Shown: piece after piece, positions 3,062 through 12,641 of the stretch
How the letters are laid out: each line of letters starts with the position of its first letter
Numbering within the stretch: position 1 is the first letter of the stretch
Source: a phage
Reading direction: 5' to 3' (one strand)
Sequence record: PV467749.1
DNA: 64,000 nucleotides
Position numbers and translations under genes: made by a program
The notes under the pieces: model-generated
What the model saw: only the letters and a program-made list of their open reading frames with translations
Databases searched by the model: none
What the model was told of the DNA's origin: nothing

Positions 3062-3441
3062 AGTTTTTTCCAGTCCAATGAATCGAAATCGATTTGTTCA
3101 GGGTTATCAACAGCGACAACTCGTGCATTATGAAGAGTTTCAAAGTAGCCGTTCCACGGTGTTCGTAATGGAACTGTCACATCACCAACTTTAACCAAGA
3201 ATGAATATGCTGGTGATATTGGGTCAAACCACTCTTTTTGTTTAGCATTTTCGACGATGGTTTCGTGTTCTTTTGTATAGCAATTATCTTGCTTCATATA
3301 AAACACCCAATGCTCTTTTAGGCACTGTAAAGCAGCAACTGCTTCCTCTTTAGAAGACCATTGAATATCAATTGTATTAAGAACGTCATAACAATTTTCA
3401 GTATCACCTGTAGTGTAATGTACTTCAATGCAGTATTTCAT
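3058..3441 (-). CDS. hypothetical protein (127 aa)
   Basis: ORF track; sits inside the paralog cluster but lacks the shared motif. Confidence 0.45.
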   Translation of the reverse strand: MKYCIEVHYTTGDTENCYDVLNTIDIQWSSKEEAVAALQCLKEHWVFYMKQDNCYTKEHETIVENAKQKEWFDPISPAYSFLVKVGDVTVPLRTPWNGYFETLHNARVVAVDNPEQIDFDSLDWKKL

Positions 3442-3896
3442 TATTCATCACCTTTTAGTAATTTACAAATTTCAATCATATGATAATAACATGTATTCCA
3501 AAATTGCCCATTAGTACTACCAACATCATGCACAGTACTTTGTTGGAAAACATATTCATCATTGAACAACTTTTTAATGTCATCAATGTAAAATTCTGGT
3601 TTTGAATCATTATTGTATTCAATACTCGTTTCACCATCTGGATCAAGTGAAATTGATGATATGTCGTGAATTCCTATCGGATTTGTTGGACAAATTCTCA
3701 ACGTAAGAGGATAGAAGTCTGGATCGGTTTCATATGTATATCCGATTATGTAATTACCATCTCCAGTGATTGAGTTATATTTAAATTTAGGTTCAAATAC
3801 ATTATGGACATTATAACCTAGTTTATTCATCTCGTTAAGATGTAATAATATTTTATGTAAAGTCCCTAAGACATGAATCAAATTATCAATTTTCAT
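3441..3896 (-). CDS. small protein, EExFFQQST-motif paralog family member
   Basis: ORF track; DEYVFQQSTVHD at residues about 113-124 of 151; ATGA overlap with upstream gene. Confidence 0.5.
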   Translation of the reverse strand: MKIDNLIHVLGTLHKILLHLNEMNKLGYNVHNVFEPKFKYNSITGDGNYIIGYTYETDPDFYPLTLRICPTNPIGIHDISSISLDPDGETSIEYNNDSKPEFYIDDIKKLFNDEYVFQQSTVHDVGSTNGQFWNTCYYHMIEICKLLKGDE

Positions 3897-4408
3897 TTAC
3901 GATCCTTTGAAAAGTTCAGTTTAAAAGATTTACCAAATTCCATTGTAGCTTTACCCAGATTGTTAATATTTTCTTTCAACATTTCTTGCATTTTTCTCAC
4001 ACTTTCATTCCAGGCTTCCTCTTCTTTACGGAGGATTGGTCGCAATCGTTCCTGAATATCGTTAAAACGTGTATTGAGTTCAACCAATGATTCATATGTG
4101 AAATCTTTCATGTCGATGATAGTACTTCGTTGAAAGAATTCTTCTTCGGATAAATTACTCAAAATGATTTTATCACTACCAATAGATAATGTCAATTCAT
4201 CATCTTGATTTTTTTTAATTACAATACGTACAGGTGATTTTATAGTAATGTGAACATCATGATTATTAAAAGTTTCAGTTTTGTTTGACGTTCTGAATTG
4301 TAGTCTTCCGGTTAGTGCGTGTACTGGCATTGGGTTCTTTTTACCAGTAATAACATCTTCCCACGAATCAAGGATATTATTAATAATTTTAACATAAGGA
4401 ACTGTCAT
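3893..4408 (-). CDS. small protein, EExFFQQST-motif paralog family member
   Basis: ORF track 3893..4435; internal ATG (MTVPYVK...) has AGGTG SD, first ATG has none; contains EEEFFQRSTIID. Confidence 0.5.
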   Translation of the reverse strand: MTVPYVKIINNILDSWEDVITGKKNPMPVHALTGRLQFRTSNKTETFNNHDVHITIKSPVRIVIKKNQDDELTLSIGSDKIILSNLSEEEFFQRSTIIDMKDFTYESLVELNTRFNDIQERLRPILRKEEEAWNESVRKMQEMLKENINNLGKATMEFGKSFKLNFSKDRK

Positions 4409-4450
4409 ATATGCACCTATGAAAAATCCACGCATAGCGTGGATCTGTAA

Positions 4451-4981
4451 TTAATCGAGTATAGTAACTTCAATCAAACGAATTTCGATGAATTCGTTTT
4501 CAGTTTCCCATGATGAACCTAATTTCTTATTAAGTTCAGTTTTAACATCACTTTTAAATTTTCCCATAGTATTAGGAATAATTTGTTTGGTTAGTTTGTC
4601 ATAACCACAATAAAACATAGGTTTCTCCCTTCGAGATATTAGCTCAACAAAATCCTTTGGATATGCAGGTATATTATGCATCACTTCATGAATGCACTCA
4701 GTACTTGAATCTTGTACTTTGTACATTACATTAAGTTTACCTTTGAAAGTTCTAATCATATCAACAATAATACCTTTACCAGATTTAAGTAAAGTTCCAT
4801 TCTTTGTATGAGAACAATAGAATACCTCATCACCAATATTAGGATAGTACAAATTAAATTCTAATTCTTCCTTTGATGACTGACGTTGAAATTTCATTAC
4901 ACGTTCAGTATAGGTGGGGTAGTTCTTCATGTTCAAAAGAATATCTCTCTTAGTAAGTGTGATATAACTGGCATAGTCCAT
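4451..4981 (-). CDS. hypothetical protein (176 aa; start uncertain, alternative ATG at 4930)
   Basis: ORF track; overlaps methyltransferase 3' end by 49 nt unless the internal ATG at 4930 (MKNYPTY...) is used. Confidence 0.4.
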   Translation of the reverse strand: MDYASYITLTKRDILLNMKNYPTYTERVMKFQRQSSKEELEFNLYYPNIGDEVFYCSHTKNGTLLKSGKGIIVDMIRTFKGKLNVMYKVQDSSTECIHEVMHNIPAYPKDFVELISRREKPMFYCGYDKLTKQIIPNTMGKFKSDVKTELNKKLGSSWETENEFIEIRLIEVTILD

Positions 4982-6822
4982 CCATTCCCAAGCATTTTGT
5001 ATGCTTGTGTCTTACTAGACACTTTAAAGAAATCTACAGGAATACCCTGTAATTTACAACATTCTACTACACTTAAGTGTCTATAGTCAATATTTCTTTT
5101 ACCATTCTCCAATAGATATTGACGATTAATCGTTGGGTCACGAAACACCAACTGTCGTCTTGATTTATTAAAGTACTGGTTACAATCACCACCCTTAAAA
5201 TAGTTAGCATCTATACAGTACGAAGCGGTTCTGTCAGTGTACCAACCATCTTCAATGATATCTTGAAGTTTAGGGGCATTTGATAATGCAGGTGGTATAA
5301 AAAGCTTATCAGTACTGCACCAGTAGTATCTCTGCCTGAAGTGAGGCGTATAATGCTGGGAATTTATCAGTACTGGTGTCATCTCAAGAACACTATTAAT
5401 GTATTGCTTGAAATCTTCTTTCATCTTAACATTCTCAAAGAGAACTTTCAAGTTAGGATTTAAACTTTTTATGTGTTGGTAGATATCAACCATCGTGTGA
5501 AACAACATTCCACGTGGGTCATTTATACCACCCTGTTTACCAGCAACTGACCATGCTTGACAATTGTGAACAACTATATTATTTGCAGTGTACGTGTTAT
5601 CAACAGCAACTTCAAAATTATATACAGTTTTCCATTCTCCAGTATGAGTGCTAGTTTTTACACCTTTAACCCACGAATAATTTTTGTCATAAAAAGCTTC
5701 CTCTTTTTTCGGTTGGTCTTTTTTATATGACAAAACATAATAAGGTTTTTGGTTAACAACTCGATTTTCAATAACTTTGGTATTCTCTGGTTGAGTATAG
5801 CTTATATTGGAATGCCTTCCATATACGTTCATTATCAATTGTTGAATACCCAATACACAGTTTATTGATGTTGTAGTGAATTTATAACATCCACTATCAA
5901 TATGTCCATCAGCGTCAAAGTAACCATCAAGAAATGCTTTTTGGTTTTTTATGCATTCCGTGAATAGTTCTGGGTGTACTTGTTTGTTAGAAGCACCCTT
6001 TCCCATTTGTTCACAAAATTCAACCAGATCTTTTGAACATATATAAAATTTATATGAAGTTCTTTCTTTAACATAATTATATTTCATATTCATACCATCA
6101 AAACATGAAACTAATTCATTAAATTCGTCATGTGCACAACAGATGAAAACTCTATATTGGTAACTATTGGTTCTATTGTTACGTTTTACTTTATATGTCC
6201 ATCCATCACCCATAAAGCGACCCATAAAATACCAGAATTTTTCATCTTTCGTTGATTTGTTAGATTCAACTGATTTAACATTACACAGAAAATGGTCATA
6301 TGTCAAATCATGTGCCTCTACCCATTCTGGTTCAGAAAAATGACGTTCATATTGTCTAATGTTGTTATTCCACATAGACGTCATTTTTCTTGAATAAAAG
6401 GGATGATTATCGGTACATTCAATTGGAAGGTGACCTTGACCTGTAATAATACGAGTGGGAGCATTTTTAACACCAGTACTCAAAACTGGATGATATTTAC
6501 CAGTATGTGTCAGTACCATGTCACCAACTTGAATGTCTTTTATATCTTTATGACCTTTGTCTGTCATAATCATGGTTCCTGCTGGGAAGCATGGAAATCC
6601 ACCCATTAATAAATCTATTTTATCCCACTCAATATCCCATTCTCTCCATTTAGTTACATCACCCAATTGGGTGATATCAGGAAAGTTAGCTTGAGATTCA
6701 GCTATTGCGTACTTGTCAATTTCGGATGAATAATATTTTTCAACAGGGATACCAGCATCTTTTAATGCCATGTATCCAACACTCATCCCATTAAAAAGAG
6801 ATAGTACTCTGATAGGTTTCAT
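4933..6822 (-). CDS. DNA (cytosine-5)-methyltransferase precursor containing an intein (629 aa precursor; about 285 aa mature)
   Basis: Motif I FNGMSVG, motif IV GGFP|C..CQAWSVAGKQGG...DPRG interrupted after GGFP, motif VI LFENVK, motif X QAYKMLGNGW; AAAGGA SD before ATG. Confidence 0.85.
   Translation of the reverse strand: MKPIRVLSLFNGMSVGYMALKDAGIPVEKYYSSEIDKYAIAESQANFPDITQLGDVTKWREWDIEWDKIDLLMGGFPCFPAGTMIMTDKGHKDIKDIQVGDMVLTHTGKYHPVLSTGVKNAPTRIITGQGHLPIECTDNHPFYSRKMTSMWNNNIRQYERHFSEPEWVEAHDLTYDHFLCNVKSVESNKSTKDEKFWYFMGRFMGDGWTYKVKRNNRTNSYQYRVFICCAHDEFNELVSCFDGMNMKYNYVKERTSYKFYICSKDLVEFCEQMGKGASNKQVHPELFTECIKNQKAFLDGYFDADGHIDSGCYKFTTTSINCVLGIQQLIMNVYGRHSNISYTQPENTKVIENRVVNQKPYYVLSYKKDQPKKEEAFYDKNYSWVKGVKTSTHTGEWKTVYNFEVAVDNTYTANNIVVHNCQAWSVAGKQGGINDPRGMLFHTMVDIYQHIKSLNPNLKVLFENVKMKEDFKQYINSVLEMTPVLINSQHYTPHFRQRYYWCSTDKLFIPPALSNAPKLQDIIEDGWYTDRTASYCIDANYFKGGDCNQYFNKSRRQLVFRDPTINRQYLLENGKRNIDYRHLSVVECCKLQGIPVDFFKVSSKTQAYKMLGNGWTMPVISHLLREIFF
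5563..6591 (-). mobile_element. intein (343 aa) with LAGLIDADG homing-endonuclease domain, inserted at catalytic Cys of the C5-methyltransferase
   Basis: Starts CFPAGTMIMTD (block A), LTHT (block B), two LAGLIDADG-type motifs (FMGRFMGDGW, FLDGYFDADGHI), ends NNIVVHN followed by extein Cys of the PCQ motif. Confidence 0.8.
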
Positions 6823-6859
6823 ATAAAATCCTTTTTATATTGTTAAGGTACTATAATAC

Positions 6860-6868
6860 ATTATAGCA
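6860..6868 (-). promoter_or_regulatory. sigma70-like extended -10 element (TGCTATAAT) upstream of methyltransferase gene
   Basis: TGCTATAAT on minus strand about 38 nt upstream of ATG 6822; motif recurs upstream of other genes (see findings). Approximate coordinates. Confidence 0.3.
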
Positions 6869-6874
6869 TCTTAT

Positions 6875-7126
6875 TTAGAAATCTTCCAGACTTTTTTCAT
6901 CGCACCATCGAGAAGTACAGATGATCGCAGATGCAAGAATTGAAGCACTGGCTCGACCACCACCAAGTAAGTACTGGCTAATGACACCAATCATATTGAA
7001 GACTTTATCATACTCAGCAAGGAGTTCAAAATCCTTCTTCCAACATTGATATTCTTCTTCAGTAACATTAAACTCATCACCAAGTTCATTTAAAATCTTT
7101 TTAAGTACTGCACGATGTTCACTCAT
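6875..7126 (-). CDS. hypothetical protein (start uncertain; ORF track 6875..7165)
   Basis: ORF track begins at GTG; ATG with GGGGAA SD at codon 14 (MSEHRAVLKK...). Confidence 0.4.
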   Translation of the reverse strand: MSEHRAVLKKILNELGDEFNVTEEEYQCWKKDFELLAEYDKVFNMIGVISQYLLGGGRASASILASAIICTSRWCDEKSLEDF

Positions 7127-7204
7127 CTGATTCCCCATATCGTTCGTCGTAAAAATCATCATCACGGTCCAATGGTTCTTTTGGTTTTTCTGCCATATAT
7201 TTCC

Positions 7205-7465
7205 TCACATGGTAAATGTATTATCACCATCCATATCTTCATCTGTAGCTTCAGCTAAGGTCTTAATCGTTAGCAATTCACGCTTCACGTACAACATGAA
7301 GACCTTTTCATAATTACCGAACATCATCTCAGGTGACATGTAATTCTCCGTTACAATGACGATTGGACGGCCCTGTGACAGCATACGAAACATAGTACGG
7401 TATTTGTCAAAGGTGCGAAATTCATCCATGTTCATCATGTGGCGTTTACGAACTACTTTAGTCAT
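7205..7465 (-). CDS. hypothetical protein (86 aa)
   Basis: ORF track. Confidence 0.4.
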   Translation of the reverse strand: MTKVVRKRHMMNMDEFRTFDKYRTMFRMLSQGRPIVIVTENYMSPEMMFGNYEKVFMLYVKRELLTIKTLAEATDEDMDGDNTFTM

Positions 7466-7479
7466 TTTGATACCTTTAG

Positions 7480-7935
7480 TTAATTGAACTCGATTTCTGG
7501 ATAATGATTATAGAACATCTCACGTACTGCGTCAAGCTGTTCTTTAAATTTCTCAATGTCATCAAGAGTTAGTACAGTGTTACTAACTGTACTCAACTGA
7601 AAAAGTGCCTCTTCAGTACTGTTTTCTGATAAATCAAATGTACATGATGAATCATCTGTTATAATATTATCACATATTTCAAATGTGTCAATATGAACAT
7701 CATTGAGTAGATCACCACTATAATCATTATATATGAACACAAAAATGTATGATGGTTTTTTTATCTCAGTTTCTGACTCATAGGCTACTAAATCATATGT
7801 TACGTAACATTTAAAGTCAGGTGAATCGTATTCCATAGATACAATTCCTATATCACGATATTGATTCGCTTCACTGATTAAATCCGGTATAGGTGTAATA
7901 CTAAGTAAATGGAAAAACTGTCCTGGATTTAGCAT
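7480..7935 (-). CDS. small protein, EExFFQQST-motif paralog family member
   Basis: ORF track; TEEALFQLSTVS motif; start overlaps upstream stop. Confidence 0.5.
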   Translation of the reverse strand: MLNPGQFFHLLSITPIPDLISEANQYRDIGIVSMEYDSPDFKCYVTYDLVAYESETEIKKPSYIFVFIYNDYSGDLLNDVHIDTFEICDNIITDDSSCTFDLSENSTEEALFQLSTVSNTVLTLDDIEKFKEQLDAVREMFYNHYPEIEFN

Positions 7936-8384
7936 TTGATTACCTTCGGGTTTTGCTCTGTGATATCAAACATAGATAGAACGAAATCATTTAGCTTTTC
8001 AACACAATTGATTATAGTGCTTAAATCAGAATAACTAACTGTTAAATTTTTAACAAGAGATTCCTGAAAGTATCCTTCTTCAGTTGAGCAATAACTCACA
8101 TTTGAGATAGTCTCATAATGTATATCTTTGCTTGTTTTACATGTTATAATTTCTATTATATCCGATGTTGTGTTATATAATAATATAAATGTTGTTGTTC
8201 GTGAATTCTTATTGTAAAATGCGAGTTCAGTGCTGTCATATGTTTTCTCAATAAGAACATTGTACTCTTCCGAAAACGATGTGGAAATTCTAATTATCTC
8301 TTCTGGATCAGGAACATAAGAGCCATCAAATTTACAAGACAATGCAATTTCAAAATGATTTTTTATTTCATCAATTTTCATCAT
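7929..8384 (-). CDS. small protein, EExFFQQST-motif paralog family member
   Basis: ORF track; TEEGYFQESLVK motif; ATGA overlap. Confidence 0.5.
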   Translation of the reverse strand: MMKIDEIKNHFEIALSCKFDGSYVPDPEEIIRISTSFSEEYNVLIEKTYDSTELAFYNKNSRTTTFILLYNTTSDIIEIITCKTSKDIHYETISNVSYCSTEEGYFQESLVKNLTVSYSDLSTIINCVEKLNDFVLSMFDITEQNPKVIKC

Positions 8385-8776
8385 AGCTCACCATTTAATT
8401 TGCTATTTACATATTCTAATGCTTTTTTAACAATGCCAATTTCGGTAACTCCTATTACATTTTTCTCGATTAACGACAATTGAAATAGTTCATCTTCCTC
8501 AATATCAATACTATGGGTTCTTGACCAATAAACGTTGAAGTCATATGCATATCGTATTGTATTTTCTTTAATATCAAGTACCAATATAACCATACCATTG
8601 TGTAGGTATGTCAGTGTTTTTCCGTATATATTAAAAATTAACCTATCTGGTGTACCCAATGGAAGATGAATTATATTTTGTGTAGTTCCAACAATAACAA
8701 AATCATTATCTATATTTTTATTCAAGTCACCTAGAATGTCATATATAGTAGTCATGTTAATCTTGACCCTCAGCAT
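8381..8776 (-). CDS. small protein, EExFFQQST-motif paralog family member
   Basis: ORF track; EEDELFQLSLIE motif. Confidence 0.5.
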   Translation of the reverse strand: MLRVKINMTTIYDILGDLNKNIDNDFVIVGTTQNIIHLPLGTPDRLIFNIYGKTLTYLHNGMVILVLDIKENTIRYAYDFNVYWSRTHSIDIEEDELFQLSLIEKNVIGVTEIGIVKKALEYVNSKLNGEL

Positions 8777-9161
8777 TTCTGATGATTCGCATTACTTCTC
8801 TGGATACGTTGTATACTTTTTTATAGTACTCAAATGTAACTGAACCAAAATCATTAACAGTACTATCCATGAAGAACGATTCTTCGGTGCAATACACACC
8901 TGTAATTGAAACATGCTCATGATGGAATTTAGCATCTTTCCAGTAACGGAATTCGAAAATAAATTGCCCGTCATGACCAACCCTACAACACTCAGCACGG
9001 TCACTGTCTACGCAGCTAATCACAATATCCCTTTCGGAGTCATACCAGATATTTCCAATATTTGTTTCAATAACTGCATAATCAATTTTTGTAGAATTGG
9101 GAATTACACCTTTTTTTACCAGTACTAGACTGGTATTATCAATATCAAGTAAACTTACCAT
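8757..9161 (-). CDS. small protein, EExFFQQST-motif paralog family member (degenerate motif)
   Basis: ORF track 8757..9176 begins at TTG; ATG at codon 6 with GGGGAG SD; motif TEESFFMDSTVND. Confidence 0.45.
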   Translation of the reverse strand: MVSLLDIDNTSLVLVKKGVIPNSTKIDYAVIETNIGNIWYDSERDIVISCVDSDRAECCRVGHDGQFIFEFRYWKDAKFHHEHVSITGVYCTEESFFMDSTVNDFGSVTFEYYKKVYNVSREVMRIIRNAEGQD

Positions 9162-9162
9162 A

Positions 9163-9573
9163 TCAACTCCCCACAATTACTGTGTTTTTGATTTCTAACA
9201 ATTCACTATACATCTTCTTCAATTGTACAATATCTTCATATAAAATACCACCCATATCATCAATCAAAGAACGTTGGAATAGTGATTCATCTGACTGTAT
9301 CGTGTCCAAATCAGAAATTTTCAATACTGTAACTGGGTTTAGGGTGTTTACAATAAGTTTGTTTGTGTATGGGATGTATGTGATCTTGATATTCATTTCC
9401 GAATCAAGGGCATACAACCTCAAAACAGACAAATCACCACAAAGTTGGATTTTTGGTTCATCAAACTCATCAGACCACCACATAGTACTAGTCATATAAT
9501 TGACGTGTTGGTTCAAATGTGATATATCCAAATCGAAATAATATTTTAGTTCATTGTGTAAATCTAAACTCAT
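9163..9573 (-). CDS. small protein, EExFFQQST-motif paralog family member
   Basis: ORF track; SDESLFQRSLIDD motif; GAGGA SD 8 nt upstream of ATG. Confidence 0.5.
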   Translation of the reverse strand: MSLDLHNELKYYFDLDISHLNQHVNYMTSTMWWSDEFDEPKIQLCGDLSVLRLYALDSEMNIKITYIPYTNKLIVNTLNPVTVLKISDLDTIQSDESLFQRSLIDDMGGILYEDIVQLKKMYSELLEIKNTVIVGS

Positions 9574-12167: not shown

Positions 12168-12331
12168 ATTTTTTTATCATCCGATTTTACATAATAGTAA
12201 CATACAATGCAGTGAATTACAAGAAGAATAATTTCTACTACATTCAGTGCCACAACATGCCCTTGCGGGACCGTAAGTGACAATAACAACATTATAGTAG
12301 GTATTACGAATATTGTCAATGTTTTTTTCAT
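12164..12331 (-). CDS. small membrane protein (about 55 aa)
   Basis: ORF track 12164..12370; ATG at 12331 has AAGGAAATAAA SD, upstream in-frame extension lies in a duplicated segment without SD; hydrophobic MKKTLTIFVIPTIMLLLSLTV. Confidence 0.4.
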   Translation of the reverse strand: MKKTLTIFVIPTIMLLLSLTVPQGHVVALNVVEIILLVIHCIVCYYYVKSDDKKI

Positions 12332-12417
12332 TTTATTTCCTTGTGGGACCGTAAGTGACAATAACAACATTATAGTAGGTATTACGAATATTGTCCATGT
12401 TTTTTCATTTTATTTCC
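12261..12417. repeat. tandem direct repeat, 2 copies of about 78 bp, near-identical
   Basis: 12261..12338 and 12339..12417 align with about 3 differences (C/T, A/C, one T in a T-run); each copy carries AAGGAAATAAAATG. Confidence 0.7.
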
Positions 12418-12641
12418 TTAATGTAGGCAAATGGTAAAAATACAACCTCTACCCCAGGAAATGCAGTTGCGAGTGCATCAACTATAGATTTGTTTTTATT
12501 ACATTGCCATACTTTTGTAACTTTGTGCTGGAATACCTTGCCATCTTTTACTAACCAATACATTTGCATTTTAACAGTACTGTTATCAGATGGTATTAGT
12601 AAATCTTCCATATCATATGAATTAAAGATTCTCTCGTTCAT
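12405..12641 (-). CDS. hypothetical protein (78 aa)
   Basis: ORF track; C-terminus and stop lie in repeat copy 2. Confidence 0.45.
   Translation of the reverse strand: MNERIFNSYDMEDLLIPSDNSTVKMQMYWLVKDGKVFQHKVTKVWQCNKNKSIVDALATAFPGVEVVFLPFAYIKEIK

Follow-up and report, generated by a model that had tools for sequence, protein, structure and literature searches.

A DNA methyltransferase gene with an in-frame insert

A stretch of phage DNA of 64,000 nucleotides (nt) was analyzed (sequence record PV467749.1; in the following, the window). On its minus strand it contains an open reading frame (ORF) of 629 amino acids (aa) plus stop codon at 4933..6822, the longest ORF across this site. Profiles and motifs predict that the host protein is an orphan phage C5 DNA methyltransferase, and this enzyme is very probably interrupted between Pro77 and Cys421, within motif IV (PCQ), by a class-1 intein with a two-motif LAGLIDADG homing endonuclease. 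An earlier reading of the bare sequence (the sequence-only reading) had proposed an intein with a LAGLIDADG endonuclease at the catalytic cysteine; profiles, the predicted fold, and naturally empty sites support this proposal. All features of the gene described below lie on the minus strand.

The N-extein (aa 1-77, 6592..6822) carries motif I (FNGMSVG, aa 10-16, 6775..6795) and the first half of motif IV (GGFP, aa 74-77, 6592..6603). It is followed by the insert, 343 codons between Pro77 and Cys421 of motif IV (aa 78-420, 5563..6591), the product of which begins with CFPAGTMIM and ends with NNIVVHN. After NNIVVHN, the translated reading frame continues with CQAWSVAGKQGG...DPRG. This C-extein (aa 421-629, 4936..5562) begins with CQAWSVAG of motif IV and contains motif VI (ENV in LFENV, aa 461-465, 5428..5442), motif VIII (RQRYYW, 5320..5337), and motif X (GNGW in MLGNGW, from aa 610, 4966..4995), so that motifs I, IV (PCQ, once spliced), VI, VIII, and X of C5 methyltransferases are all present. 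The boundaries given by the sequence-only reading (5563-6591, residues 78-420) were reproduced exactly by translation, and the motifs quoted there (FNGMSVG, GGFP, FMGRFMGDGW, ENV, GNGW, CFPAGTMIM, and NNIVVHN) were all located. The codon of Cys421 (5560..5562) specifies the predicted +1 splice nucleophile and, at the same time, the catalytic cysteine of motif IV. A sequence search of the PDB aligned the protein with DNMT3A/B, M.HhaI, and M.HaeIII; Cys421 was aligned with residue 81 of M.HhaI, a cysteine well established as the catalytic nucleophile of that enzyme.

Excision of residues 78-420 in silico yielded a spliced product of 286 aa, where about 285 aa had been expected. The precursor matched the Pfam profile DNA_methylase (cut-off 22) with 111.8 bits (6e-32) in three separate stretches; the spliced form reached 132 bits, and its match runs through the junction without interruption. 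A failure of the flanks to restore the catalytic motif would have spoken against the sequence-only reading; joined in silico, they form an unbroken motif IV (GGFP-CQAWS), as do the natural alleles that lack the intein. With the NCBIfam profile TIGR00675 (dcm), the precursor scored 99.3 bits, just below the cut-off of 100.65, and the spliced form 119.2 bits. The intein alone may suffice to drop the gene from automatic naming.

Among solved structures, the best matches of the 286-aa enzyme were the catalytic domains of eukaryotic DNMT3A/3B (E 3e-19), with the bacterial enzymes M.HaeIII and M.HhaI far behind (about 1e-10). The methyltransferase is very compact, and its target-recognition region is short.

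Intein and endonuclease features of the insert

The insert contains intein block A (CFPAGTMIMTDKG, 6553..6591) with Cys1 corresponding to aa 78, block B (TDNHPF, 6397..6414) with Thr137 and His140 (T60 and H63 of the intein), and blocks F and G (VYNFEVAVDNTYTA NNIVVHN, 5563..5625) with the terminal residues His419-Asn420. A homing-endonuclease domain extends approximately from intein residue 110 to 290 (5722..6264), its bounds being taken from the secondary structure of the model described below, in which the domain has the predicted fold type alpha-beta-beta-alpha-beta-beta-alpha. It carries LAGLIDADG motif 1 (FMGRFMGDGW, aa 199-208, 6199..6228) with the acidic residue Asp206 and motif 2 (FLDGYFDADGH, aa 297-307, 5902..5934) with the acidic residue Asp305. 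The insert was aligned with ten relatives. In this alignment of 11 inteins C1, T60, and H63 (TxxH of block B) as well as the terminal N343 are invariant. The acidic residue of motif 2 (Asp) is kept in at least 90% of the sequences, and that of motif 1 (Asp or Glu) in every relative which still has motif 1.

The sequence-only reading had named a lack of Hint-domain blocks as evidence against an intein. This objection falls, because both Hint_2 (34-35 bits, cut-off 28.4) and LAGLIDADG_3 (29-31 bits, cut-off 22.5) matched the insert above the Pfam cut-offs. A profile built from the alignment retrieved from the PDB the VMA inteins (3e-13), PI-PkoII (2e-12), and PI-SceI (1e-10), and also the gp41-1 intein and PI-PfuI; the matches to PI-SceI and PI-PkoII extend over the endonuclease region. 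Furthermore, an AlphaFold2 model was calculated from the same alignment, with a predicted local distance difference test score of 90.6 and a predicted template modeling score of 0.88. When this model was compared with the PDB by Foldseek, the endonuclease-containing TliVMA intein was found at the top (E 3e-18, template modeling (TM) score 0.68), followed by PI-SceI, PI-PfuI, and PI-PkoII; the E-values of TliVMA, PI-SceI, and PI-PfuI ranged from 1e-13 to 3e-18. The central domain matched I-DmoI (E 2e-8, target TM-score 0.60-0.67). Splice residues, profile matches, and predicted fold all fit; hence, as judged from sequence and model, the insert agrees in every respect with a class-1 intein containing a monomeric two-motif LAGLIDADG endonuclease.

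The base composition does not mark the insert: neither GC content (0.28-0.37 inside, 0.30-0.39 in the flanks) nor skew sets it apart. A local hidden Markov model built from the family and run over the window revealed no further intein besides 5563..6591.

Empty and occupied sites in related phages

Megablast of region 4400-7400 against phage records gave 37 matches, exclusively to jumbo phages of Escherichia or Salmonella. Ten of these records were inspected more closely; nine belong by classification to the genus Asteriusvirus (PBECO4/121Q group, about 350-385 kb), and phage fEgEco12 is classed only as Caudoviricetes. By these sequence relationships, the window is assigned to an Asteriusvirus jumbo phage of the PBECO4/121Q group and not to T4. 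Window and fEgEco12 are collinear over 46 kb with 98.7-99.3% identity, and the single break in the megablast alignment corresponds to window positions 5563-6589.

Intein-less alleles of 861 nt (286 aa) were found in BF17, fEgEco12, CMSTMSU, PBECO4, 121Q, and G17. Across the junction (marked here and below by an arrow) they join GGFP↓CQAWSVAGKQGG exactly as in the product spliced in silico; other positions differ. In BF17/fEgEco12 and PBECO4, the intein-less junction is centered on GGATTCCCA↓TGTCAAGCC. Compared with these alleles, the insertion is precise, in frame, and 1029 nt long; the break in the genome alignment measures 1027-1029 nt, with an ambiguity of 2 nt at the boundary. Agreement of this kind between profile scores, junction, empty alleles, and collinearity greatly exceeds what chance would produce.

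The intein region is covered in only four of the 30 related records listed, namely TH47, JNE01, ph0011, and UE-S1; the majority of relatives have the empty 286-aa allele. TH47 and JNE01 encode a 343-aa intein with 88% protein identity to that of the window. The intein of ph0011 and UE-S1 is a variant of 340 aa with similar splicing ends and an endonuclease core of only 45% identity; two endonuclease variants are thus present at one site in related phages. Among culturable E. coli jumbo phages that are nearly identical to one another, some have the intein (TH47, JNE01, ph0011, UE-S1, and the phage of the window) and others lack it (BF17, fEgEco12, PBECO4, and 121Q). This polymorphic set provides a ready system in a tractable host for measuring homing, the length of co-conversion, and fitness cost in phage crosses.

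The sequence-only reading had regarded a C5 methyltransferase as unusual cargo in a T4-like replication module. The first part of this view was not borne out: the methyltransferase locus was matched in all 37 records, a methyltransferase is annotated at this position in many of the 30 listed, and the enzyme is encoded in all six intein-less records examined. It appears to be a regular gene of the Asteriusvirus group rather than odd cargo. The second part is only loosely right. T4-like replication genes are present, and in fEgEco12 genes for topoisomerase II subunits, clamp loader, RNase H, helicase, ribonucleotide reductase, and dihydrofolate reductase were found, but they are located 17-40 kb away from the methyltransferase. 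The gene lies among small genes of unknown function, in fEgEco12 within a long series of small hypothetical genes.

Inteins in motif IV of other C5 methyltransferases

A word-index search with the intein returned 11 proteins; the near-identical phage alleles were not among them. The ten relatives obtained (P0001-P0010) share 28-53% identity with the intein, and nine of them are located at G(G)xP↓C...N↓CQxxSxAG of other C5 methyltransferases. An exhaustive profile search yielded 4,925 cluster representatives (50% identity) at E ≤ 1e-30. Among the best 149 of these 50%-identity representatives, 109 show the context xxxP↓C[238-374 aa]N↓C(Q/T)xxS, and each of ten sampled proteins belongs to PF00145, with a break in the match at profile position 71/72. 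Judged from these sequence contexts, inteins appear to use motif IV of C5 methyltransferases as a major insertion site, occupied in at least 109 clusters among the best 149.

An intein in motif IV of a C5 methyltransferase is a known kind of insert, widespread at this exact site. In nucleic-acid enzymes, inteins are regularly located at catalytic residues, and the finding leaves the accepted view of intein function unchanged. The motif-IV site seems to be little described explicitly in the literature searched, where we found no description of the PCQ-cysteine insertion site or of any Asteriusvirus intein.

Four metagenomic C5 methyltransferases (P0012, P0019, P0021, and P0030) carry two inteins of this family, one in motif IV (P↓CQ) and one immediately behind motif VI (ENV↓C...HN↓CGAFSS).

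Probable mobility of the intein and alternative explanations

The sequence around the insertion site was compared with that of phages which are otherwise 99-100% identical to the window. The window diverges from them in a tract on the minus strand at 5380..6802, comprising the intein, about 183 nt of the C-extein, and about 211 nt of the N-extein. Relative to fEgEco12 and BF17, 41 substitutions were counted in 5380-5554 and 32 in 6595-6802, as opposed to none in 4782-5379 and only three to four in 6803-7900. Because the substitutions are clustered in this way, a 1.4-kb segment consisting of the intein and about 200 nt on either side has a history unlike that of the rest of the genome; it probably represents a co-conversion tract. 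The C-extein haplotype INDPRGMLFHT occurs in all five intein-bearing alleles, whereas all six intein-less alleles have LNDIRGQLFLV. Furthermore, the flanking genes of the window and TH47 are 98-100% identical, whereas between the two inteins 145 of 1029 nt (14%) are different. Inteins so different within flanks so similar imply repeated site-specific import.

The synonymous divergence (dS) of the inteins amounts to 0.75. The ratio of nonsynonymous to synonymous divergence (dN/dS) is 0.08 for the intein, 0.07 for the endonuclease domain, and 0.03-0.10 for the exteins, and by this measure the intein is under purifying selection. Tract, haplotypes, intein divergence, and dN/dS are the signatures to be expected of homing with co-conversion, repeated from a diverse pool of inteins. 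They suggest a recent homing event into the window lineage, and a gain by this lineage is the direction favored by parsimony.

A metagenomic methyltransferase, P0002 (L012 4053-5708), contains at the same site an intein of 264 aa in which motif 1 is gone and motif 2 no longer has its acidic residues. Judged from its sequence, this intein is a decay stage of the homing cycle. The P0002 contig has a similar array of small genes, and its methyltransferase is closely related to that of the window.

Several points weigh against a functional homing intein acquired recently. We infer splicing, endonuclease activity, and the cleavage site from the sequence. Block F has Asn in place of the Asp of many inteins (VYNFEV) and lacks the His at its usual position; this deviation lies within known variation, yet splicing could be slower. 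The endonuclease domain might be under purifying selection for a function unrelated to homing. The event could also have run in the reverse direction, with an intein-less clade replacing an intein-bearing allele, and a donor of the C-extein tract is absent among the sampled phages, in which the best match is 84-87%.

Splicing might be intact while the endonuclease is no longer active in homing, the intein being a vertically inherited passenger or having been moved by general recombination between co-infecting phages. We assign this possibility an appreciable but clearly minor probability. The losses in P0002 show that decay of the endonuclease does occur in this lineage, recombination in jumbo and T4-like phages is frequent and can produce mosaic tracts without any targeted break, and homing itself is deduced from comparative data. 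However, the window intein retains its two catalytic Asp residues as well as the conserved Lys, and the constraint on the endonuclease domain equals that on the exteins. General recombination would also have to account for a mosaic tract centered on the insertion site in genomes otherwise nearly identical, and for the differing inteins of the window and TH47 between closely similar flanks.

A domain insertion that does not splice, or an inactivated methyltransferase pseudogene, is very improbable. Splicing is a deduction, and several records say "hypothetical protein"; against this, the 629 codons are open throughout, all splice-site residues are kept and invariant across the family, the exteins are under strong purifying selection, and the P↓C...N↓C architecture is common to the 109 representatives mentioned above. 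That unrelated sequences were joined by an assembly or sequencing artefact has a practically negligible probability; no point in support was found, the exact 629-aa protein is present on nine contigs, independent samples contribute 16 members to its 90%-identity cluster, and an intein occupies the same codon in four independently sequenced phage isolates. Assembly artefact, pseudogene, and non-splicing domain insertion were all rejected on this evidence.

Proposed mechanism

The precursor would be unable to methylate DNA because 343 residues split its catalytic loop, an expectation based on the established function of the PCQ loop. Following the established class-1 mechanism, splicing would start post-translationally with an N-S acyl shift at Cys78. 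Trans-thioesterification would then move the N-extein onto Cys421, and cyclization of Asn420 would free the intein of about 40 kDa. After a final S-N shift, the enzyme would be native, 286 aa long, and its GGFP-C-QAWS loop intact. Comparative data suggest that the free intein may cut the GGFPCQAW-coding site of intein-less genomes during co-infection; the cut genome would then acquire the intein, along with about 200 nt of adjoining extein sequence, through recombinational repair. Homing and repair would yield both the patchy distribution and the mosaic tract 5380..6802.

Additionally, we considered splicing as a post-translational timer or redox switch gating the onset of phage DNA methylation, an idea that arises because the +1 nucleophile is also the catalytic cysteine and a disulfide could form between Cys1 and Cys+1. 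In that case the linked C-extein haplotype (DPRGMLFHT with the intein, DIRGQLFLV without it) would not simply have hitch-hiked through co-conversion; it would be a co-adapted sequence that favors splicing or confers immunity to cleavage. We regard this proposal as improbable.

Comparison with known systems

The solved inteins TliVMA (7qsu/7qss), PI-SceI (1vde, 1lws), PI-PfuI (1dq3), and PI-PkoII (2cw7) resemble the window insert in that a Hint domain is split by a two-motif LAGLIDADG domain. Cys1, TxxH, the terminal His-Asn, and Cys+1 are shared, as is the insertion into a catalytic motif of an enzyme acting on nucleic acids or nucleotides. Profile and fold matches reach E-values of 1e-10 to 3e-18, yet sequence identity is only 13-18%. 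The window intein is more compact (343 aa compared with 430-540 aa) and has no obvious extra DNA-recognition region of the PI-SceI type. The hosts also differ: here a bacteriophage C5 methyltransferase, there an archaeal or yeast ATPase, polymerase, or reductase.

Uncharacterized motif-IV inteins from public genomes and metagenomes (for example P0026, P0031, P0054, P0096, and P0008 of Paenibacillus cisolokensis) share with the window intein the insertion point xxxP↓C...HN↓C(Q/T)xxS, the family, and the domain order. They are relatives at the sequence level only, and the second ENV↓C intein of P0012, P0019, P0021, and P0030 is absent from the window protein.

Inteins have been described in phage DNA methylases, namely the DNMT-1/2 inteins in N6/N4 methylases of mycobacteriophages (Kelley et al. 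2016, PMC5050341) and a methylase intein of the actinophage Dorothy_75 type, for which the class of methylase is not stated (Gosselin et al. 2023, PMC9957025). Like the window protein, these are orphan phage DNA methylases with a LAGLIDADG intein of patchy distribution, and there is evidence for transfer between divergent methylases. However, the mycobacteriophage cases of 2016 concern N6_N4 methylases (PF01555), which differ from the C5 enzyme of the window in fold family and insertion site. A preprint of 2025 includes both N-6/N-4 and C-5 methylases (IPR001525) among the intein hosts of actinophages (bioRxiv 10.1101/2025.01.02.630785). The published methylase-intein hosts are phages of Actinobacteria, whereas the host of the window intein is an E. 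coli jumbo phage. Two further papers (PMC6266608 and PMC11437467) were rejected as precedents, since inteins occur there only in a reference or in ribonucleotide reductase.

The window intein would share its mode of spread, a double-strand break in the naive allele during co-infection followed by co-converting repair, with the homing endonucleases I-TevI, SegF/G, and MobE of T4-like phages, for which co-conversion of flanking markers in mixed infections is known; tract 5380..6802 fits co-conversion of this kind. In contrast, I-TevI, SegF/G, and MobE are GIY-YIG or HNH enzymes encoded in introns or between genes, and they are removed at the RNA level or never; the window element would be removed at the protein level.

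Database annotation and neighboring genes

In GenBank, the exact 629-aa protein (P0161) has the accession GAB0881717.1 and the name "hypothetical protein [Escherichia coli]". The other members of its cluster are labeled "DNA cytosine methyltransferase", and none has an intein label. The value of the finding thus includes a corrected annotation, since the intein feature is missing from the deposited records. Cluster mates lie on contigs of up to 354 kb filed as E. coli; therefore, whole Asteriusvirus genomes are apparently contained in assemblies labeled as bacterial.

The methyltransferase gene is flanked on the minus strand by small ORFs of about 130-150 aa (3441-3896, 7480-7935, 7929-8384, 8381-8776, and 8757-9176). 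They look paralogous, have the common motif F(Q/M)xS(T/L)(V/I), and are hypothetical in related phages. The downstream ORF 4451..4981, when read from its longest start, shares 49 nt (4933-4981) with the 3' end of the methyltransferase gene; in related records, either this overlapping version or a shorter one is annotated. Region 12261-12419 may contain a short tandem duplication or repeat, as two overlapping megablast matches of about 82 nt to fEgEco12 (96-98% identity) were obtained there.

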